Positions 38,584 through 62,395 of a stretch of 64,000 nucleotides of DNA are shown here, piece after piece. The DNA comes from a virus. The notes below the pieces were generated by a model that did no database searches, had not been told where the DNA came from, and saw nothing but the letters and a program-made list of their open reading frames with translations. The stretch spans positions 21,866 through 85,865 of IMG/VR virus record IMGVR_UViG_3300021959_008125, one strand, 5' to 3'. The position numbers and the translations under genes were made by a program. The first letter of the stretch is position 1, and each line of letters starts with the position of its first letter.

Positions 38584-38655
38584 GGCCCCTTCGTCTATCG
38601 GTTAGGACGTTAGGTTTTCATCCTAGAAAGAGGAGTTCGATTCTCCTAGGGGCTA
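38584..38655 (+). tRNA. tRNA-Glu (anticodon TTC), CCA not encoded
   Basis: Acceptor GGCCCCT/AGGGGCT; D arm CGTC..GACG; anticodon arm TTAGG-TTTTCAT-CCTAG; T arm AGGAG-TTCGATT-CTCCT. Confidence 0.95.
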
Positions 38656-50850: not shown

Positions 50851-50878
50851 AGTGTCGTAGCACCACTTTAAAAACACA
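50851..50878 (+). ncRNA. Putative class I preQ1 riboswitch aptamer
   Basis: P1 AGTG/CACT, loop TCGTAGCAC, tail TTAAAAACAC; lies upstream of the queD-queE operon; second copy before folE. Confidence 0.75.
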
Positions 50879-50882
50879 TTTT

Positions 50883-51140
50883 ATGAAAACAGAAGAACAA
50901 AGGTTATTAGATGAACTCTATGATGTAGAGACAAGAAGAGTAACCGGTGATAGCACTTCATCACCGTTAACAGCCGACAACTTACAAGACTACCCAGACG
51001 CAAAAAAACACCAAATTGTGTCGTTTATTAAATCAGGAATTAGAATTTTAGGATATTGCTTTATACCTTTCAATTTGGTAATTTCAGCAATTTTACTTAT
51101 ATTATCTGAAATAGTAGGTATAATCGAAGAATTAGTTTAA
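50883..51140 (+). CDS. Small membrane protein heading the queD-queE operon
   Basis: Hydrophobic C-terminus (IRILGYCFIPFNLVISAILLILSEIVGII). Confidence 0.65.
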   Translation: MKTEEQRLLDELYDVETRRVTGDSTSSPLTADNLQDYPDAKKHQIVSFIKSGIRILGYCFIPFNLVISAILLILSEIVGIIEELV

Positions 51141-51143
51141 GTT

Positions 51144-51608
51144 ATGGGAAAATTTCAATCAACAAAAGTATTTGACGGATTCTCTACAGTATTTCGTCAA
51201 TGGAAAGCAGAAACAACACATTGTAAGTATTTACACGGTTACGGAGTATCTTTTAAACTATGGTTTGAAGGAGATCTAGACGAAAGAAATTGGGTATGGG
51301 ACTTTGGCGGTATGAAAAGAGCTAAAGGAAAAATTGACGGTAAGACTCCTAAAGAATGGATGGATTATATGTTTGATCATACCTTTGTAGTAGCTGAAGA
51401 TGATCCGTATCTACAGTCATTTATTAAAATGGATGGTGTAGTAGCTCAAGTAAGAGTTGTTCCTGCAACAGGAGCAGAAAGATTCGCACAGTTTATCTAT
51501 GATAAAATTAATCCTTTTATTGAAGAAGAAACTGAAGGAAGAGTAAAAATTACAAGAGTAGAATTTAGAGAGCACGGTAAAAATTCAGCGATATATGAGC
51601 CTAGGTAG
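51144..51608 (+). CDS. queD: 6-carboxytetrahydropterin synthase
   Basis: C..LHGY, WVWDFG, FDHTF, TGAE, V.F.EH..N.A.Y. Confidence 0.9.
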   Translation: MGKFQSTKVFDGFSTVFRQWKAETTHCKYLHGYGVSFKLWFEGDLDERNWVWDFGGMKRAKGKIDGKTPKEWMDYMFDHTFVVAEDDPYLQSFIKMDGVVAQVRVVPATGAERFAQFIYDKINPFIEEETEGRVKITRVEFREHGKNSAIYEPR

Positions 51609-52371
51609 AATAGAAGATTACGATAAAGGGCTACCTGTAGTAGAAGTTTATACAGCAGTACAGTCAGAAGGAAGTCGTCAAGGTTATCCTACGGTTGTTA
51701 TTAGAACTACCGGATGTACTCACAGATGTTACTTTGGTGAAGGCGGATGGTGTGATAGCTGGTATACCTCTATTCATCCGGAAAAAGGTAAATATACTTT
51801 TAACGACATTATTAAAAAGTATGATGAAAATCCTCATATATCTGAAATGATGCTAACTGGTGGGTCTCCTACAATGCACCCTAAGCTTGTAAATGAATTA
51901 ACTCACTTTGCTCACGAAAGAGGAATCTTTATTACAATAGAAACTGAAGGAAGTCATTTCTTAGAAACAGATTATCCTATTAATCTCTTATCTATTAGTC
52001 CTAAGTTTTCTAATTCTATTCCTAAAATAGGTGTTTTAACCCCTCAAGGTAGAGAAACTAATCAAAAGATGATAGATAAACATAACAGCTTAAGACTTAA
52101 TTTAGATGCTATTAAGAAATCTATAGAATATCACGATGATTATCATATTAAACCAGTATTGGATAAGAACCTAACGATCTATGGGGAGGTATGGAAATTT
52201 CTAGATGAGTTACAAATTCCTAACGATAAAGTATGGTGTATGCCTGCTGGAGATGATAGAGAATCACTGATGGAAAGTTATCCAGTAGTTATGGATTTTG
52301 TGAGAGATAAAGGATATAGATTTACTGGTAGATCCCACATAATGGCATTTGATACACAGAGAGAAGTTTGA
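51595..52371 (+). CDS. queE: 7-carboxy-7-deazaguanine synthase (radical SAM)
   Basis: VQSEG...G.P.V.IRT.GC, CDS, LTGG.P, IETEG, SISPK. Confidence 0.92.
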   Translation: MSLGRIEDYDKGLPVVEVYTAVQSEGSRQGYPTVVIRTTGCTHRCYFGEGGWCDSWYTSIHPEKGKYTFNDIIKKYDENPHISEMMLTGGSPTMHPKLVNELTHFAHERGIFITIETEGSHFLETDYPINLLSISPKFSNSIPKIGVLTPQGRETNQKMIDKHNSLRLNLDAIKKSIEYHDDYHIKPVLDKNLTIYGEVWKFLDELQIPNDKVWCMPAGDDRESLMESYPVVMDFVRDKGYRFTGRSHIMAFDTQREV

Positions 52372-52992: not shown

Positions 52993-53279
52993 TGACATTT
53001 CAAGAAATTATTAAGAATTGCCCTACAGTAGATTATTCTTCTATTTATGTTTTTATAGGAGAAGATTGCGTATGGGATTATAAAGAAGGAGATAAGAGTA
53101 TAATGCTTATTTCTGAGCAGCCCTGCATAGATGACGAAAACGTTACTTTAGCCGAGCTAATAAATTATTCTAAAGAGTTGGAAACTCCAGAAGATTTTCT
53201 TACTTTAGAATGTGAATATGAAAGACAAGAATTAAATTCGTTTGAATGGTTAGAAAACAAACTTATATTGTCCTTTTAG
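52992..53279 (+). CDS. Hypothetical acidic protein
   Basis: 95 aa coupled ORF. Confidence 0.55.
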   Translation: MTFQEIIKNCPTVDYSSIYVFIGEDCVWDYKEGDKSIMLISEQPCIDDENVTLAELINYSKELETPEDFLTLECEYERQELNSFEWLENKLILSF

Positions 53280-53857
53280 GACTACTTGCACTAGGCTGCA
53301 CTAAACCAGAGCCAGCATTATCCCAAGAACTTAGAGAAAGAGTAGAATTCAGTATAGATGGATTATTTTCCGGAGTATACTCTGAAGTATTAGAACAGCC
53401 ACTAGAGGTAACTTACATAGTACCATGCCCGGATGGAGATGCATCCAGAACAGGATTAGACTTCTACGAAGACGCAAACATTCATACATCAGATGATGAT
53501 GATTATAGAAATAATGTTTGGGATAAAGGACATTTAGCTCCAGCAGCAGCATTCTCTTGTGATAGAGAAACAATTAAAAAAACTTTTACTTATTTAAATT
53601 CAGCTTTACAGCACCAGTCTTTAAATAGAGGTGCCTGGAACAGATTAGAATCTGTCGAGAGAGGAATGGCCATTTGGCATGAAGTAGAAGTCAAAATAGA
53701 AGTTATATTTGATGAAAACAGTCAGGTTCTACCTTCAGGTGCTACAGTACCTAGAGCATTTAGGAAAACTATTAAAGCTGGGGACGTCACTAAAGTATTT
53801 TACTTCCCTAATATTGATACATCCGGAACGGATTGGGAAGATTACTTAATCCAATAA
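53246..53857 (+). CDS. DNA/RNA non-specific endonuclease, lipoprotein
   Basis: Lipobox LALGC; DKGHLAPAA; N..LQH.SLNRGAW..LE; VP..F.K. Confidence 0.9.
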   Translation: MVRKQTYIVLLGLLALGCTKPEPALSQELRERVEFSIDGLFSGVYSEVLEQPLEVTYIVPCPDGDASRTGLDFYEDANIHTSDDDDYRNNVWDKGHLAPAAAFSCDRETIKKTFTYLNSALQHQSLNRGAWNRLESVERGMAIWHEVEVKIEVIFDENSQVLPSGATVPRAFRKTIKAGDVTKVFYFPNIDTSGTDWEDYLIQ

Positions 53858-54041: not shown

Positions 54042-56576
54042 ATGTTTAATTTTAATTTATTTATGATGAGAAATCTCATTTTAACTCTGTTAGGTTTACT
54101 AACAGTTGGAGCTTACGCTCAAGAAAGCGCTGTAAATGACACAATCGTTACACAGCAGTTAGAAGAAGTTGTAGTCTCTTCAAGAGTTATTGACGTTGCT
54201 AAAGCACGTGTTACTCCTGTAGCAGTATCAACAATTTCAGCTAGCGACATTTCGTTGAAAGTAGGTAACTTAGAGTTTCCTGAAATCATGAACAGCACAC
54301 CTGGTGTGTATGCTACAAAACAAGGCGGTGGATATGGGGACTCTCGTATCTCATTACGTGGTTTTGATCAGCGTAACACTTCTTTCCTTATCAATGGACA
54401 ACCAGTTAACGATATGGAAAACGGATGGGTGTATTGGTCAAACTGGCAAGGATTAACCGATGTTGCTTCAGGTATCCAAATCCAAAGAGGATTGGGCGCT
54501 TCAAGGTTAGCAGTACCTTCTGTAGGTGGAACAGTATCCATCTTCACAAAAGCTGCAAGTAAAGATGAAGGAGGATCATTTACTCAAGTAATCGGAAATG
54601 ATGGCTACACTAAAACAACAGCAGCCTACAACACCGGTAAAAACGAGAACGGATGGGCAACTTCTGTTTTATTAAGTAAATGGGCTGGAGACGGTTACAT
54701 TTATAATACATCCGGAGAAGGATGGACTTACTTCTTTGCATTAGGATATGCACCAGAAGATTCTAATCACGCTCTTAACTTATCAGTTTTAGGTGCAGGA
54801 CAATGGCACCACCAAAGAGATGTTTGGGTATCTATTAGAGATTACCAAAACTTCGGAGAAGAAGGAATTGATAGAAGATGGAATTCAAATGGTGGAATTT
54901 TAAATGGAGAAGAATATTCTTTAAGAAGAAACTTCTACAACAAACCATTAGCTACATTGAACTGGGATTGGGATATTTCTGAGAACGTTCAATTAAACAC
55001 TTCTTTCTACGCTTCAGCAGGTAGAGGTGGAGGAACAGGACCTAGAGGTAATAACTTTAGAGGTTCAGCAACAGATATCTTACCTTTTAGAAAAGATCTA
55101 ACTGAGCATTACTTAGAAAATGGTAGAGGTTCAAGATTGGCTAATGGATTTATTGATTTTGATGCTATTGTTGCTTCTAACAGAAATACGACTGATCCTT
55201 ATACTGGAGATATTTCTAGATTTGCTGGTCAAAAAATTGGTTCTAATGGATTTAGAGATGATGGAGTAAATAGAGTAGCTTTAATTAGAAGAGCTTCTAT
55301 GAACTCTCATGACTGGGTAGGTGCAATTTCGTCTTTAGATATTACTTCTGGTAATTTTAAATACTCTTTAGGAGTTGATCTTAGAAACTACACTGGGTAT
55401 CATTACCGAGTAGTTAACGATCTATTAGGATTAGATGGTTATTATTCAACAGGTAACAAGAACTCTGCTGGTCAGATTATTGAAACAACAGTTGAAGCAA
55501 ACCCATTCAAGAACACTGGAATTAGAGGACCTAAAATCGACTACTATAATATCGGTAAAGTAGGTTGGCAAGGTGTTAACGGTTTAGTTGAATATAACAA
55601 CTCTACCTTATCTGCAGTATTACAAGCAGGTCTATCTAACCAATCATTCCAAAGAATAGACTACTTTGATCAACCTGGTAATCCAGAATCTGATGTACAA
55701 AATCAAGGAGGAGGATATGTTAAAGGTGGTGCTAACTATAACTTAGATGAAAAATCTAATGTATTCTTTAATGCAGGTTATATCTCTAGACAGCCACAAT
55801 TTGACGCAGTATTCCCTAACTATGCAAATAACATCAATCCAGATCTACAAAACGAAGAAATTCAATCAGTAGAATTTGGGTATGGATTTATTACAAATAA
55901 GTTAAAATTAAACGTAAACGTTTACTCTACAAACTGGGGTAATAGATTTGTTACAAGAAACTTATCTAACCAGCAAGGAGTAGATGGATTCGCACAATTT
56001 AAAGATATCGATGTTACTCACAACGGTATTGAAATTGAAGGAACTTATAGTTTATCTTATAAAACTAAGTTTAAAGGAATGTTATCAATTGGTGACTGGA
56101 CTTATGATCAAAACTTTGAAGCTGAATTATTTGACGATAATCAGCAATCAATCGGTACTGGAACTCTTTATACTAAAGGAGCTAAAGTTGGTGATGCAGC
56201 ACAATTCGTTGCTAACCTAGCAGTTGATCAAAACTTAGGAAGATTAGGTAAGTTAGATCTTAACTATAGATTCGTAGATGGTTTATATGCTGACTACTCG
56301 ATTACAGATTCAGCATTTACTTCACCAGATAACGATGGTGCGTTAAAACTACCTTCTTACGGTATTGTAGACCTAGGATATACAAAATACTTCGGAAGTA
56401 AATTAAGCTTCAGAGCGAATGTAAATAACGTGTTAGACACAACTTATATTGCTGAGTCTAACTCTAATATTCATGCAGGAGCAGGCTCAACTACATGGAA
56501 TGGAATCGATGTAAGAAACTCAGTATGGTTCGGATTTGGAAGAACTTTCAATGCGTCTCTTAAATATAGATTCTAA
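54042..56576 (+). CDS. TonB-dependent outer-membrane receptor
   Basis: Signal peptide (likely start 54063), TonB box LEEVVV, plug TPGVY/SLRGF/LINGQP/IQRG, C-terminal GRTFNASLKYRF. Confidence 0.95.
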   Translation: MFNFNLFMMRNLILTLLGLLTVGAYAQESAVNDTIVTQQLEEVVVSSRVIDVAKARVTPVAVSTISASDISLKVGNLEFPEIMNSTPGVYATKQGGGYGDSRISLRGFDQRNTSFLINGQPVNDMENGWVYWSNWQGLTDVASGIQIQRGLGASRLAVPSVGGTVSIFTKAASKDEGGSFTQVIGNDGYTKTTAAYNTGKNENGWATSVLLSKWAGDGYIYNTSGEGWTYFFALGYAPEDSNHALNLSVLGAGQWHHQRDVWVSIRDYQNFGEEGIDRRWNSNGGILNGEEYSLRRNFYNKPLATLNWDWDISENVQLNTSFYASAGRGGGTGPRGNNFRGSATDILPFRKDLTEHYLENGRGSRLANGFIDFDAIVASNRNTTDPYTGDISRFAGQKIGSNGFRDDGVNRVALIRRASMNSHDWVGAISSLDITSGNFKYSLGVDLRNYTGYHYRVVNDLLGLDGYYSTGNKNSAGQIIETTVEANPFKNTGIRGPKIDYYNIGKVGWQGVNGLVEYNNSTLSAVLQAGLSNQSFQRIDYFDQPGNPESDVQNQGGGYVKGGANYNLDEKSNVFFNAGYISRQPQFDAVFPNYANNINPDLQNEEIQSVEFGYGFITNKLKLNVNVYSTNWGNRFVTRNLSNQQGVDGFAQFKDIDVTHNGIEIEGTYSLSYKTKFKGMLSIGDWTYDQNFEAELFDDNQQSIGTGTLYTKGAKVGDAAQFVANLAVDQNLGRLGKLDLNYRFVDGLYADYSITDSAFTSPDNDGALKLPSYGIVDLGYTKYFGSKLSFRANVNNVLDTTYIAESNSNIHAGAGSTTWNGIDVRNSVWFGFGRTFNASLKYRF

Positions 56577-56636: not shown

Positions 56637-57056
56637 ATGAAAGAAAAGGTTTATTTATCATGGAATTGGGTAGATCAACAAGTTATGACTCTTGGGGAGA
56701 CTATCAAAGAATCAGTCAGTGAATTTTTATACGTAACAGGCATTCCAAGAGGAGGTTTAATCCCTGGAGCATACCTTTCACATTATTTAGGAATAAAATA
56801 CATTCCATATGCTGATGCAAAACAGCTTCCTATAAGTCTTAGAAAACAAGTTTTAGTAATAGACGATATCTGTGATAGCGGTATGACTTTATTAGAAGCT
56901 ACAGAATACGGATTCCAGACAGCAGCTTTAGCATACAGATACTCTTCTCCCTATATGCCTGAATGGTATTCAGAAAAAATAGAAGATGATAGATGGCTTG
57001 TATTTCCATGGGAAAGAGTAGATTCAAAAACAATACAAGATTATTTGGATAATTGA
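56637..57056 (+). CDS. Purine phosphoribosyltransferase (Gpt-like)
   Basis: GIPRGGLIP, VLVIDDICDSGMT (PRPP loop), WLVFPWE. Confidence 0.9.
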   Translation: MKEKVYLSWNWVDQQVMTLGETIKESVSEFLYVTGIPRGGLIPGAYLSHYLGIKYIPYADAKQLPISLRKQVLVIDDICDSGMTLLEATEYGFQTAALAYRYSSPYMPEWYSEKIEDDRWLVFPWERVDSKTIQDYLDN

Positions 57057-57073
57057 GATAATATTCCTATATT
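57045..57073 (+). promoter_or_regulatory. Bacteroidota-type promoter TTG-N20-TATATT for the folE operon
   Basis: TTG at 57045-57047, TATATT at 57068-57073. Confidence 0.7.
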
Positions 57074-57086
57074 GTATAATGGTTAT

Positions 57087-57116
57087 GAGTGTCGTAGAAC
57101 CACTTTAAAAAACAAT
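57087..57116 (+). ncRNA. Putative class I preQ1 riboswitch aptamer
   Basis: P1 GAGTG/CACTT, loop TCGTAGAAC, tail TAAAAAACAA, a few nt from the folE ATG. Confidence 0.78.
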
Positions 57117-57118
57117 TA

Positions 57119-57787
57119 ATGAGTAAAGATTTAGAATTAGTAAAAGTAGGTTATGCCAACGGAGTTGCTCCTGGCTTTCCTCTAACAGAAGATGAAAAAT
57201 GGAAAATGGTCGAACTAGCGGCTGAAAAGTATGGAGAGTTTCTCGATGCTTTAGGTTGTGATTGGCGTAATGATCCTAATTCGGCTGATACTCCTAGAAG
57301 AGTAGCTAAAGCCTATGCATTCGATCTATGGAAAGGTAGATACGATGCTATGACTGATATAACAGCATTTCCTTCTGACGGTTATAACGGAATCGTTCAG
57401 GAGTCTAATATCCCGGTGACATCGATGTGTAGCCATCACCATCAGACTATTGGTGGTCGTGTGAGTATCGCTTATGTACCGTCTGAGAATGGTAAAGTAG
57501 TAGGTCTGTCTAAACTCAACCGAATCGTCGAGCATTTCGGTAGAAGAGGTGCTATACAAGAGCAGCTTACTGTAGCCATTCATAATGCAATCGATAAGAT
57601 TTGCGAAGGTAACTTAGGTGTAGCGGTAATGATCGATGCTACCCATAACTGTGTTAGCTGTAGAGGTGTTAAACATCACGGTGCTTCAATGCAAACAGCT
57701 AAACTATCAGGATGCTTCTTAAATGAAGATTCAGCGAGAGCGGAGTTTTACAAGAATATTGAACTAGCAGGAAAATGCAGATCGTAG
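57119..57787 (+). CDS. folE: GTP cyclohydrolase I
   Basis: TPRRVAK, SMCSHH, GLSKLNR, IQEQLT, H.CVSCRGV. Confidence 0.97.
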   Translation: MSKDLELVKVGYANGVAPGFPLTEDEKWKMVELAAEKYGEFLDALGCDWRNDPNSADTPRRVAKAYAFDLWKGRYDAMTDITAFPSDGYNGIVQESNIPVTSMCSHHHQTIGGRVSIAYVPSENGKVVGLSKLNRIVEHFGRRGAIQEQLTVAIHNAIDKICEGNLGVAVMIDATHNCVSCRGVKHHGASMQTAKLSGCFLNEDSARAEFYKNIELAGKCRS

Positions 57788-58209
57788 ACTTCGAAGAAAG
57801 ACCTTGGGGGTATTATGAAGTTCTTTTAGAGCTTCCTGAGACTAAAGTAAAGCAGATTACAGTAGATAACGGTCATAGATTATCTTATCAATATCATGTG
57901 CATAGAGATGAGACTTGGGTTGTTGTTGCTGGAAAAGCTAAAGTAACCTTAGACGGTAAAAATACTATAGTAGAACCAGGTCAGACTATTCAAATTACTA
58001 GAGGTGTAAAACATAGAGTAGAAGCCATAGGTAAAGAAGACTTAACATTTATAGAAGTACAGACCGGAGATTACTTCGGTGAAGATGATATAGTTAGGTT
58101 AGAGGATGATTATGAAAGAGCAGAATTAGAGCATCTTAGAGATAATAACTATATTGGGGGGTTAACTATGCCTATTAAAAATACTAATAAACTAAATAAA
58201 GATGAGTAA
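57775..58209 (+). CDS. Mannose-6-phosphate isomerase type II C-terminal cupin
   Basis: RPWG, LSYQYH.HR.E.W, IEVQTG.Y.GEDDIVR..DDY. Confidence 0.9.
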   Translation: MQIVDFEERPWGYYEVLLELPETKVKQITVDNGHRLSYQYHVHRDETWVVVAGKAKVTLDGKNTIVEPGQTIQITRGVKHRVEAIGKEDLTFIEVQTGDYFGEDDIVRLEDDYERAELEHLRDNNYIGGLTMPIKNTNKLNKDE

Positions 58210-58765
58210 GCAATTATCATTATTCCCAGCAGAAGAACTAGAATGGGTTAACGGAGTCCCGTTTGTGGATGAAGTAGAAACTTTTAACAAAACATTTGGT
58301 AAACCAAATAACTATGAACCAACTATCCCCGCAGAAAAAGAATGGAAGTTTGTCTATGACTTCATACTCGAAGAACTTGAAGAATATAGAGAAGCTTGCG
58401 AAAGGGGCGACATTGTGGAAGTTTTGGACGCTTTGTGCGACATTACTTATGTTTCCCTTGGGAACGGTGTTATGTTACATGGCCTTAAGGATAAGATATG
58501 GGACGCATATCAAGAGGTACAAGCAAGTAATATGTCAAAAGCTTGTAAAACTGAAGAAGAAGCCATACAGACCGTCAGCCAAAGAAGTGAGGAACAAGGT
58601 GAGGCCTGTCATTATGAGAAGATTGCGCAAGGAAGGTTTATTGTCTACCGTTCCAGAGATCGAAAAGTAATGAAATCAATTAACTACTTCAGACCAGACT
58701 TAACTAAGTTTTTTACTGAAGATGATATATTTAGAAATAGACCACAACAACACGTAGGAATATGA
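58202..58765 (+). CDS. All-alpha NTP pyrophosphohydrolase (MazG-like, DR2231/PRA-PH family)
   Basis: EELEEY, DALCDITYV, EV..SNMSK, K..K...Y..PDL. Confidence 0.85.
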   Translation: MSKQLSLFPAEELEWVNGVPFVDEVETFNKTFGKPNNYEPTIPAEKEWKFVYDFILEELEEYREACERGDIVEVLDALCDITYVSLGNGVMLHGLKDKIWDAYQEVQASNMSKACKTEEEAIQTVSQRSEEQGEACHYEKIAQGRFIVYRSRDRKVMKSINYFRPDLTKFFTEDDIFRNRPQQHVGI

Positions 58766-58935
58766 TTAATTTAGATGAACATAAAGTTTACGTAGAGAGT
58801 CATAAAATGGATATGATTCCATATTCAGTTGCTAAACAAGCTGTGCAAGAAGCTTACAATAATGCTGAACAAGTAGAGACTTCATTAAATGATATCATAA
58901 AAGCTTTTAATAAATTAAATTCATTAGATGATTAA
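58762..58935 (+). CDS. Small hypothetical protein (57 aa, not in ORF track)
   Basis: MINLDEHK...; overlaps both neighbours. Confidence 0.55.
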   Translation: MINLDEHKVYVESHKMDMIPYSVAKQAVQEAYNNAEQVETSLNDIIKAFNKLNSLDD

Positions 58936-59755
58936 AATAGCACACGAAGCTCCTATAGATATCTTTGAAGAAGTTCAGAGATTTACAGATTACGATTATG
59001 CTTTAGTTCATTTGCTTGAACAAAATTCTAGATATAGAGATACTTTTGAAAGAGTTATTAAAAAAGGTAGAGAAGTTATTTTAGATAATTCTATCTTTGA
59101 GTTAGAAGAAGCTTTTGAAGCTGATAGATTTGATCAGTGGATTAATAGACTTAAGCCGTACTGGTATATCGTTCCTGATGCATTAGAAGATGCAGAAAAA
59201 ACTATGCGTCAAATGCAAGACTGGAATGATAAAGGATACGGGTATAAAGGTAGCTGTAAGATAGGTGTTGTTCAAGGTAAGACTTATGATGAGATTGTTG
59301 ACTGTTATAACTTTATGAATGAACCTCAACAGGATGTAGATATGATTGCTATATCTTTTGACTATTCGTATTATACTGTATCTGTCCCTCATCCTAACAA
59401 ATATGTAAGTTGGATGCTTGGTAGAGTTAAACTCTTAGGAGACCTATTGAGAGACGGTGTGATAAACACTGAAAAGAAGCATCACCTATTAGGTTGCGGA
59501 TTACCTCAAGAATTTAGTTTTTATAAGCATTCAGATTATAATTGGATCTATTCTTTAGATACTTCTAACCCTATAGTACATGCTATAAAAGGCATAGAAT
59601 ATACCGATCAAGGATTATGGAACAAAGAATCTCAAAAGCTACATGAGCTTATCGATTATGATATTGATAAAATTGATTTGTCTTTAATGAAGACTAATTT
59701 GGTTAAATTTAGATGGTTTACAAATGGAGAAACGCCAGTGGGTAGCATACTTTAG
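58928..59755 (+). CDS. dpdA: TGT-fold 7-deazaguanine transglycosylase-like protein (DpdA family)
   Basis: ILDNS, VPD, GVVQG, HHLLG, SLDTS motifs; located in the que gene cluster. Confidence 0.75.
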   Translation: MIKIAHEAPIDIFEEVQRFTDYDYALVHLLEQNSRYRDTFERVIKKGREVILDNSIFELEEAFEADRFDQWINRLKPYWYIVPDALEDAEKTMRQMQDWNDKGYGYKGSCKIGVVQGKTYDEIVDCYNFMNEPQQDVDMIAISFDYSYYTVSVPHPNKYVSWMLGRVKLLGDLLRDGVINTEKKHHLLGCGLPQEFSFYKHSDYNWIYSLDTSNPIVHAIKGIEYTDQGLWNKESQKLHELIDYDIDKIDLSLMKTNLVKFRWFTNGETPVGSIL

Positions 59756-60269
59756 TCAGACAGGAGCTGAAATAGCTGATATTTGCGAGTCTATCGGTAG
59801 ATGGCCTACTCGCATTATTACTAATAAAAGACCTAAGCACTTAAGAACCATAGATCCTAGAATTACTCAGCATGGTTATTTAGAAATGTCTAATAAACCA
59901 ACCTTTAATGAATATCATGAAATACTTCAATATTTAAATGATCCTATTATTACTTTACATGGATGGCTAAGAATAATGCCTCCTGGAGTTTGTGATGCGT
60001 TTGAAATTTTTAATGGTCATCCCGGACTAATTACTAAGTATCCAGAACTTAAAGGTAAAGATCCTCAAGTAAAAGCTTTTTCAGCTCAATATAAAGAGAT
60101 TGGTTCTGTTATACATAAAGTAGATGCAGGAGTAGACGAAGGTCCTGTATTAGCAGAATCGAGTATTTTTATTGGCGGATTCAGTTTAGAGGATTATTAT
60201 AAAGAACTTAAGATATTAAGTTTAGAACTTTGGGAAGATTTCTTGAGAGAACGTTTAAATATCGAGTAA
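59724..60269 (+). CDS. PurN-like formyltransferase, candidate preQ1 formyltransferase (DpdN-like)
   Basis: FSQTG, LHGWLRI, NGHPGL, G.VIH.VD.GVDEGPV; overlaps the dpdA-like gene. Confidence 0.8.
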   Translation: MEKRQWVAYFSQTGAEIADICESIGRWPTRIITNKRPKHLRTIDPRITQHGYLEMSNKPTFNEYHEILQYLNDPIITLHGWLRIMPPGVCDAFEIFNGHPGLITKYPELKGKDPQVKAFSAQYKEIGSVIHKVDAGVDEGPVLAESSIFIGGFSLEDYYKELKILSLELWEDFLRERLNIE

Positions 60270-60288
60270 TTTTTCGTATATTATTATT

Positions 60289-60807
60289 ATGGTAAAAAGA
60301 ATAGCATTAGTTGGAGCAAGTAGTACAGGTAAAACAACTGTTTATGAATTACTTAAGACTAAGCTACCTAAGTATGAATTTGTAAACGAATCTACTAGAA
60401 CAGTAGGTAATTATGGTTTTCCTATTAATGAGGCTGGTACTTCTGAAACTCAATTAGCTATCAGTAGCTTCCATTTAGAAGCATTACTACAACCTTATAA
60501 TCTTGTATTAGACAGATGTTATATGGATCTAGTAGCATACTCTAGATTCATGCCTAATATAAGCAAAGAGACGTTAAAATATATCTTAGATACATGGCAA
60601 AGGGTTAAAAATGAATATACTCATTATGTATATTTTCCTATCGAATTCGACTCTGTTGATGATGGAGTTAGAAGTATTGACGAGCAGTGGAGAAAAGATA
60701 TAGATGATGAGTTTTTTGAGATGCTGCAAGATGTAAGACAACCTTACTTATCTGTTACAGGATCTCCTATGCAAAGAGTAGAACAAATATTAGAATTTAT
60801 AAAATGA
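60289..60807 (+). CDS. P-loop nucleotide kinase (AAA_28/NadR-like, candidate dNMP kinase)
   Basis: GASSTGKTT, E..R, DRC..D, DDGVR, G....R. Confidence 0.75.
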   Translation: MVKRIALVGASSTGKTTVYELLKTKLPKYEFVNESTRTVGNYGFPINEAGTSETQLAISSFHLEALLQPYNLVLDRCYMDLVAYSRFMPNISKETLKYILDTWQRVKNEYTHYVYFPIEFDSVDDGVRSIDEQWRKDIDDEFFEMLQDVRQPYLSVTGSPMQRVEQILEFIK

Positions 60808-61715
60808 GTGAAGTTAAAAATTACCAAGAAGTAGTAGAGATTGCATCAAAGCACTTAGGACAAGTCGGAGGAGCTGGTTATTCAGATCAATACAATCCTG
60901 AACTACTAGTAAAAGTTCCTAGATACTTAAACAGAGAGGGTTATGGTTTAACATCAGATAGTTTTTTAGGTGTGGATACCTGGAACTGTTACGAAGTATC
61001 AGCGATTACTACCAAAGGTCAGCCTGTTGCCGGAATGCTTAAAATTGTATGTCCTGCAGATTCGGAGTTTCACGTAGAATCTAAGTCAATTAAGTTATAT
61101 TTAAACTCTTTTAATATGACTCAGATTGGCGATAATGCTGCTGATTGTATTAAAGCTATAGAAGCTACAGTTAAAAGAGATTTAGATGAATTATTAGAAA
61201 CTAATACTACAGTTTCATTTTATGCTTCTAATGATGAAGGTGAGGCTCTATCTTTTGAAGGATATCAAGATTTAGGAGATGTTGTAGATTTAGACCAAAT
61301 AGATTTTACCGCATTTAAGTCTGATGCTTCTCAGTTAATGGTTGAAGATACTGATGATGAAGCTAAAGTAATTAAATTTAAATCTAATCTACTTAGATCT
61401 AATTGTAGAGTTACTAATCAACCAGATTGGGGTGATGTATTTATCTACTTAAAAGGAAAAAAACTACCTGCAGCAGATTCGTTAGCAAAATATATAGTAA
61501 GTCATAGAACAGTAAGTCATTTTCATGAAGAAATATGCGAGATGGTTTACAAACATATATCAGATGCATATGAACCTGAGCAGTTAATGGTTGCTTGTCT
61601 TTATACTAGAAGAGGAGGTTTAGATATTAATCCGATTAGAGCATCTCATTCTATGCTAATACCAGAATTTTTTATTAATCCTGATTATAGAATTACTAAA
61701 ACTTTAAGACAGTAA
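60804..61715 (+). CDS. queF: preQ0 nitrile reductase (bimodular QueF)
   Basis: D.W..YE.S, ESKSIKLYLNS, LRSNCRVTNQPDWG, FHEE, YTRRGGLDINP. Confidence 0.95.
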   Translation: MSEVKNYQEVVEIASKHLGQVGGAGYSDQYNPELLVKVPRYLNREGYGLTSDSFLGVDTWNCYEVSAITTKGQPVAGMLKIVCPADSEFHVESKSIKLYLNSFNMTQIGDNAADCIKAIEATVKRDLDELLETNTTVSFYASNDEGEALSFEGYQDLGDVVDLDQIDFTAFKSDASQLMVEDTDDEAKVIKFKSNLLRSNCRVTNQPDWGDVFIYLKGKKLPAADSLAKYIVSHRTVSHFHEEICEMVYKHISDAYEPEQLMVACLYTRRGGLDINPIRASHSMLIPEFFINPDYRITKTLRQ

Positions 61716-62026: not shown

Positions 62027-62395
62027 ATGTGTAAAGTTACATGGTGTAATACCCCTATAGAAGAAGGAGCTCACTTTGCTACTAAGTACTGTAAAGTTCA
62101 TAGACAGTATAAGACATACGGTAAAAATGCTCCTAGAAGACCTTGGCTATTTTATAAGACAGAAAGGGTAGTAGCAGGTAATTTAAAATGTGAAAGCTGT
62201 GGTTATGACCCTACGGAATTTTATTCTAGAACTTTAAAAGAATTGAGTGGTTTATTTGACGTAGATCACATAAATTCTAATACTAAACATACTGTAGAAG
62301 GAGAACAACCCTCTAACTATCAACTTGTTTGTAAACATTGTCATATACTTAAATCATATGACGAAGGTGATTTTATTAGAAAAGATTTTAGATAA
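62027..62395 (+). CDS. HNH endonuclease (Zn-binding)
   Basis: CESC...DVDHIN...NYQLVCKHCH..KS. Confidence 0.85.
   Translation: MCKVTWCNTPIEEGAHFATKYCKVHRQYKTYGKNAPRRPWLFYKTERVVAGNLKCESCGYDPTEFYSRTLKELSGLFDVDHINSNTKHTVEGEQPSNYQLVCKHCHILKSYDEGDFIRKDFR

Follow-up and report, generated by a model that had tools for sequence, protein, structure and literature searches.

Aptamers of the class I preQ1 riboswitch (preQ1-I) follow a common plan, in which an H-type pseudoknot is formed and an A-rich loop, L3, docks in the minor groove of the P1 stem (PMC11625349). The specificity cytosine lies directly 5' of the P1 3' strand, preceded by an A in types II and III and by a U in type I, and other shared features are U6 in L1, an adenine of L3 that precedes the tail cytosine, and a G-C pair that closes P1 and forms the floor of the ligand pocket (PMC11625349). 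The ceiling of the pocket in the Thermoanaerobacter (T.) tengcongensis (Tte) aptamer is C7-G11-C30 (PMC11625349). Riboswitches carried by phages are described as rare, and the only examples given by McCown et al. (2017, PMC5473149) are c-di-GMP-I and glutamine riboswitches, with no preQ1 riboswitch among them.

The folE leader (57088-57117) and a twin (50851-50879) in the window, by which is meant the whole stretch of 64,000 nucleotides that was analysed, are likely to be compact class I, type II-like preQ1 riboswitch aptamers of a Flavobacteriales myophage, exerting feedback on translation. Each element possesses a 4-bp P1, a 9-nt loop and a 3-nt L2, and is about 28 nt long overall. The virus is related to Flavobacterium phage vB_FspM_immuto (immuto), and its folE also to those of Cellulophaga phages. 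The parts of both copies and the genes that they precede are listed in Table 1.

Table 1. Coordinates of the two aptamer copies, the promoter-like elements and the associated genes in the window.
Feature	Position	Strand	Basis or remark
Promoter-like elements ahead of folE leader	57046..57080	+	Consensus scan; share bases with the stop codon of the phosphoribosyltransferase-like ORF ahead of them
folE copy, possible extra G.U pair	G57087 with U57105		Could form in the folE copy only
folE copy, P1 5' strand AGUG	57088..57091	+	Alignment, covariation
folE copy, closing G of P1	G57091		Equivalent to pocket-floor G5 of the Tte aptamer
folE copy, loop UCGUAGAAC	57092..57100	+	Columns invariant or nearly so in alignment A1
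folE copy, L1	U57092 and C57093	+
folE copy, P2 5' strand	G57094-G57097	+	Putative helix
folE copy, L2	A57098 and A57099	+	Followed by specificity cytosine C57100
folE copy, P1 3' strand CACU	57101..57104	+	Pairing and two covarying pairs
folE copy, A-rich L3 tail UUAAAAAA	57105..57112	+	-14 to -7 relative to folE AUG
folE copy, putative P2 3' strand CAAUU	57113..57117	+	C57113 would pair with G57097
Twin aptamer, copy A	50851..50879	+	Motif match, A1, R1
Twin, P1	AGUG (50851-54) with CACU (50864-67)	+
Twin, loop UCGUAGCAC		+	Specificity cytosine is C50863
Twin, L3	50868-74	+	C50875 at start of tail ACAU
folE, GTP cyclohydrolase I, 222 aa	57119..57787	+	PF01227, E = 1.3e-43; first gene of a tight block
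Genes 3' of folE	57775..61715	+	Cupin, MazG-like, DpdA-like, PF00551 formyltransferase, AAA_28 kinase-like, QueF; overlapping or abutting
DpdA-like protein, 275 aa	within 57775..61715	+	Counterpart of immuto DpdA
PF00551 formyltransferase	within 57775..61715	+	DpdN-like
Operon led by copy A	50883..52371	+	orf85, queD, queE
orf85, 85 aa	50883-51140	+	Small virus-only protein, hydrophobic C-terminal segment
queD	51144-51608	+	In copy A operon
queE	51595-52371	+	In copy A operon
queC, 272 aa	37428..38246	+	Same pathway, motif absent ahead of gene

An earlier sequence-only reading had described the folE leader as the second of two near-identical motifs, and this observation is confirmed. The letters at 57087-57121 agree on re-reading, with the folE copy spelled AGTG-TCGTAGAAC-CACT-TTAAAAA at 57088-57111, the tail cytosine C57113 does lie 6 nt from the folE ATG (57119-57121), and the two copies differ by one loop base (C50861 versus A57098). 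The motif AGTGTCGTAGNACCACTTTAAAAA, searched for across the window with up to three mismatches allowed, matches only at 50851-50874 and 57088-57111, both times exactly; its chance expectation is 0, and matches were found in 0 of 100 shuffles. The same reading had placed the motif ahead of two deazaguanine operons only, which agrees with a scan of the whole 85.9-kb IMG/VR virus record for the core TCGTAGNACC, where the two copies are the only sites on the + strand. The covariance model R1 recovers the same two copies and none further in the window, with no match ahead of queC.

The likeness to preQ1-I that had been proposed from these letters is upheld by a covarying P1, by conservation of all the pocket positions described for the class (PMC11625349), and by the occurrence of the motif in the leaders of deazaguanine genes only. 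In a first alignment of instances (A1), the loop U, C and G..AG, the AC 5' of the P1 3' strand and the closing G-C are invariant or nearly so. T8, which is the U after the P1 5' strand, and G7 and C17, which form the closing G-C, are invariant, as are the loop G and the specificity cytosine (column 16), whilst the C equivalent to C7 and the A of column 15 are each kept in at least 90% of sequences. With the loop columns mapped onto Tte U6, C7, G11 and A14-C15, the conserved positions correspond to the pocket residues U6, C7, G11, C15, G5-C16 and A29-C30, together with the type II signature (PMC11625349). The bases concerned in the folE copy are G57091-C57101, U57092, C57093, G57097, A57099-C57100, A57112 and C57113. 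L3 is mostly 7 nt long. Of the 104 instances that pass a loose filter, 81 have at least three consecutive A ahead of a C, and the other 23 resemble chance matches. The order of A-run, then C, then A is found in the tails of nearly all instances.

The Rfam PreQ1 model aligns with the folE copy from end to end and scores 17 bits versus a gathering cut-off of 39, which is an operational threshold in a model dominated by longer loops. It does not match the queD copy, and none of 20 related loci carrying the motif scores above the cut-off. As the alignment falls below the cut-off and requires five loop deletions, the element is best described as a shortened preQ1-I variant.

A natural ligand other than preQ1 for the same fold, such as preQ0, CDG, or the formyl- or methyl-preQ1 base, tuned to the phage pathway, is considered unlikely. 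Class I aptamers do also bind preQ0, as in Tte structures with this ligand (PMC11625349), the shorter L2 together with the 4-bp P1 could alter the pocket, and queC lacks the motif in its leader. However, none of the bases that recognise the guanine-like face or the minor-groove edge is altered, nor is the floor G in contact with the aminomethyl group, and the window encodes QueF, the maker of preQ1.

Pairing of P1 provides further evidence for an RNA structure. The first alignment had been chosen for pairing, and an additional scan of IMG/VR was therefore run with an unconstrained 5' strand, the loop and 3' strand skeleton being fixed and three of the four 5'-strand bases left free. This returned 141 matches. 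Among the unique matches ahead of FolE, orf85, QueD or QueE, all four pairs are present in 60 of 61, and three of four in the remaining one. Matches with no recognised downstream gene mostly have only one or two pairs, and many of these are GC-rich and were taken as chance. The R1 alignment comprises 102 matches, of which 64 are distinct sequences, and P1 is paired in 98.8% of cells across the distinct sequences, though such cell counts are inflated by shared descent. The first pair is AU in 40, UA in 11 and GC in 10 of these sequences, and the third is UA in 48 and AU in 16; the remaining two are invariant G-C pairs, with the closing G-C present in 64 of 64. This level of covariation was reached by 0 of 500 shuffles and was lost when the 3' partners were slid. 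There are five standard stem haplotypes, AGUG, GGUG, UGUG, UGAG and GGAG, each found with its complement, and the number of independent compensatory events may be a handful, perhaps about three to five. The cultured phage immuto illustrates the pattern, with a folE leader that reads GGAG-TCGTAGAAC-CTCC-ATAAAAAC. Its RNA, GGAG-UCGUAGAAC-CUCC, has the same loop and tail as the window copy and two compensatory pair changes.

The same element is found in immuto and in more than 100 IMG/VR phage contigs, 12-20 nt ahead of FolE, orf85-QueD-QueE, QueD or QueE. About 35 of the best 80 IMG/VR relatives of FolE have it in the folE leader, and many of these carriers have a second copy approximately 2.3 kb upstream. 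Wherever the stem is intact and the downstream gene is identifiable, that gene is FolE, FolE2, orf85-QueD-QueE, QueD or QueE only. The FolE2 case is a single contig (L209, 8333-8942) in which the motif precedes FolE2/GCYH-IB (PF02649), its stem being AGAG...CUCG with one A.G mismatch. FolE2 is non-homologous to FolE but has the same GTP cyclohydrolase activity, making this a non-orthologous replacement under the same leader, and it links the motif to pathway function and not to one gene family. The closest relatives of FolE (contigs L006-L015, 75-88% identity) have no aptamer ahead of folE, only a TATATT-like element and a short leader; some members of this phage group therefore do without the riboswitch.

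Fragments bearing the motif often also encode DpdA, DpdN, QueC and QueF. In immuto, all G is replaced by fdPreQ1 (formyl-dPreQ1), and FolE through QueF plus DpdN are encoded (PMC10516641); judging from its genes, the window phage probably likewise replaces all G with a preQ1-derived base, formyl-preQ1 as in immuto. The product of orf85 belongs to no Pfam or PHROG family, and the protein Atlas gives virus-only hypothetical clusters only; orf85 is the first gene behind the aptamer in 32 unique contig variants and is thus probably part of the pathway.

Several other features were observed around these genes. The queC gene stands apart from the remaining pathway genes, which begin 13 kb downstream of it, and has a tRNA gene (54.8 bits) behind it at 38584-38655. 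Between the two deazaguanine blocks is an 844-aa ORF (54042-56576, + strand) with TonB-dependent receptor Plug and beta-barrel domains, and a similar ORF of 824 aa is present at 3791-6265 of L209. RNA-library contigs pile up at 54265-55017, in the TonB-dependent receptor ORF, and probably derive from other organisms. A DNA/RNA non-specific endonuclease (PF01223) is encoded behind the queD-queE block (53246-53857), and an HNH endonuclease-like ORF (62027-62395) lies ahead of a family A DNA polymerase.

The covariation of the stem and its proximity to the AUG would also suit any structured translational operator, and the hairpin and A-rich tail might then be an RNA operator recognised by a protein of the phage or its host, for example a repressor of translation or a pathway enzyme that regulates itself. 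The hairpin is indeed too weak for stable folding alone. This explanation is nevertheless improbable: the match at no fewer than six separate preQ1-I ligand-pocket positions would be a coincidence, the persistence of the motif ahead of FolE2 would need explaining, and the motif is not accompanied by any candidate RNA-binding protein. A double-stranded DNA operator, in which a transcription factor would bind the inverted repeat AGTG-N9-CACT, is highly improbable, although the site is just 3' of promoter-like hexamers. Its half-sites vary freely provided that they are complementary, whilst the 9-nt spacer, which is asymmetric, and the A-tail, which occurs on the 3' side only, stay conserved; this is the reverse of a protein-bound palindrome. 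In addition, every instance of the motif is in the sense orientation, 12-20 nt ahead of an ATG.

For the preQ1 aptamer favoured here, the second helix, P2, would have two to three pairs at best, with non-canonical steps, as in Tte. P2 shows no clear covariation: its G-C pair, the only constant one, is invariant and hence gives no covariation signal, and the two types of copy fit different registers. Loop position 9, in a register omitting the A that follows the C, is paired in 57 of the 81 instances (UA in 40, UG in 12 and CG in 4); all four C9 variants face G, and these variants may be close relatives. The energy of the P1 hairpin is -1.9 kcal/mol, with a z-score of about 0, no better than shuffled sequence, although folding-energy z-scores are uninformative for so small a pseudoknot. 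Among loop variants, UUGAAGCAC was observed ahead of folE and UCACAG(C/U)AC ahead of orf85 (L016:2938, L028:2936, L041:167, L028:545), the latter with a CACG tail every time, which fits a C-G pair in P2.

A hairpin that competes with P1 (GGTT...AACC, 57081-57101) had also been proposed in the sequence-only reading. RNAfold does predict it for this leader, as the minimum-energy structure at -4.0 kcal/mol, but as a family feature it was rejected, since its 5' arm is not conserved and its energy is no better than that of shuffles (z = 0.57). The 12 nt 5' of P1 vary freely among homologues, including the GGTT arm (57081-57084), and this arm may even be upstream of the transcription start if the TTGAGA-16-TATAAT promoter described below is used. 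In the queD-type copy, a different alternative hairpin, GUGU-CGUA-GCAC (50852-50863, -2.4 kcal/mol), competes with P1. Its formation would sequester the loop G together with the specificity cytosine. The TCGTAGTAC and TCACAGCAC variants could still form it, and it may represent an apo-state fold or a consequence of CAC being repeated.

The TTG-N20-TATATT promoter suggested previously for folE is present, with TTG at 57045-47 and TATATT at 57068-73. A consensus scan reads this region as TGGATA-16-TATATT (57046-57073, 9/12) and finds a better sigma-70-type match, TTGAGA-16-TATAAT, at 57053-57080 (11/12). From its position, the latter would start the RNA at about the first base of P1, and the TATATT element approximately 7 nt earlier. 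Most homologues have a TATATT-like hexamer 0-20 nt 5' of P1. Contigs from salt-marsh metatranscriptomes span 57100-57322 and 56933-57113 at low depth, with DNA carry-over possible; these are uninformative on transcript starts and were left out of the evidence.

The tail C is mostly 6-13 nt from the AUG, with 6-9 nt in orf85-type leaders, 6 nt in the window folE leader and mostly 12-13 nt in other folE-type leaders. In both copies, no terminator is found on the + strand between the aptamer and the ORF, and the stretch from the tail C to the AUG contains no purine-rich Shine-Dalgarno sequence. Ribosomes of Bacteroidota ignore Shine-Dalgarno sequences, and in F. johnsoniae little structure and adenines at -14 to -11 (including -12/-13), -6 and -3 favour initiation (PMC6847099). 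At folE the A-run of L3 spans -12 to -7, and at orf85 it spans -13 to -9. Because Bacteroidota depend on an unstructured A-rich region and not on a Shine-Dalgarno sequence, folding of the element would hide the initiation region, and because the A-run covers positions that favour initiation, it is proposed that a ligand-induced fold turns translation off.

In this proposal, where the ligand, the pseudoknot and both the direction and the level of control are predictions from sequence, free preQ1 (or preQ0) that accumulates would pair with C57100 and stack between G57091-C57101 as floor and G57097-C57113 as ceiling. With the A-run at 57107-57112 docked in the minor groove of P1, an H-type pseudoknot would result, its end lying 2-6 nt 5' of the AUG. 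The pseudoknot would then hide the A-rich initiation region (about -14 to -3), lowering initiation at folE and also at orf85-queD-queE. The outcome would be a translational OFF switch with negative feedback on the first three steps of the pathway, and overlapping downstream ORFs may spread the effect via translational coupling. The element is probably a phage-borne metabolite sensor, throttling the synthesis of modified guanine for phage DNA.

The motif appears to be a phage feature within the genomes sampled. With strict filters, R1 gave no hit in 151 sampled Flavobacteriales genomes, and the motif pattern gave one in 401, which is chance-like and equal to the reversed-pattern control. RF00522 was likewise found in none of 151 sampled Flavobacteriales genomes, with B. 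subtilis as the positive control. A contig from a metagenome-assembled genome (MAG) that does carry the motif (L088) resembles a binned phage contig. The queuosine cluster of Streptococcus phage Dp-1 has no Rfam preQ1 match at E <= 0.1. Papers on 7-deazaguanine DNA in phages, including PMC10516641, make no mention of a riboswitch, and no published report of a phage preQ1 element was found in a search that lay outside the preQ1-I representatives of McCown 2014.

A wider claim, for and against which the case is evenly balanced, is that this is the smallest natural riboswitch aptamer to date (approximately 28 nt), confined to Flavobacteriales phages, which acts free of a Shine-Dalgarno sequence by folding the A-rich initiation region and matches preQ1 synthesis to complete replacement of G. 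If true, this would mean that viruses regulate DNA hypermodification through metabolite feedback, and the minimal known preQ1 aptamer would become smaller. It would also provide a natural riboswitch in Shine-Dalgarno-free mRNAs, which is a named open challenge in a review of preQ1 riboswitches (PMC11625349). Phage immuto and its host, Flavobacterium sp. LMO8, together with the F. johnsoniae reporters already in use, put these ideas within reach of a test.

The c-di-GMP-I riboswitches of C. difficile prophages and the glutamine riboswitches of cyanophages are also phage-encoded metabolite-sensing leaders, but have another ligand and fold (PMC5473149). With preQ1-I types I and III, the phage element would share the H-type pseudoknot plan and the alpha-mode pocket (PMC11625349). 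Type I differs in that UC precedes the P1 3' strand and UU follows the 5' strand, where the phage element has AC and UC, and in binding two ligands; type III has UU after P1, in contrast to UC in the phage element, and buries an AAGG Shine-Dalgarno sequence. The closest likeness is to preQ1-I type II (T. tengcongensis, B. subtilis; RF00522), with which the element shares the P1 hairpin, the UC at the start of the loop, the pairing partners loop G and tail C, the AC before the P1 3' strand, the closing G-C floor, the A-rich L3 ending in A-C, and linkage to preQ1 synthesis genes. In comparison with type II, the phage element has a P1 of 4 bp and not 5, a 9-nt loop and a 3-nt L2, and, to our knowledge, this L2 is one base shorter than that of any solved type II aptamer. 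Known preQ1-I aptamers are 33-34 nt long, compared with approximately 28 nt here. The element is further set apart from type II by being carried by phages and by having no Shine-Dalgarno or terminator platform, and whereas type II controls queuosine supply for tRNA, the phage element would control the hypermodification of DNA.
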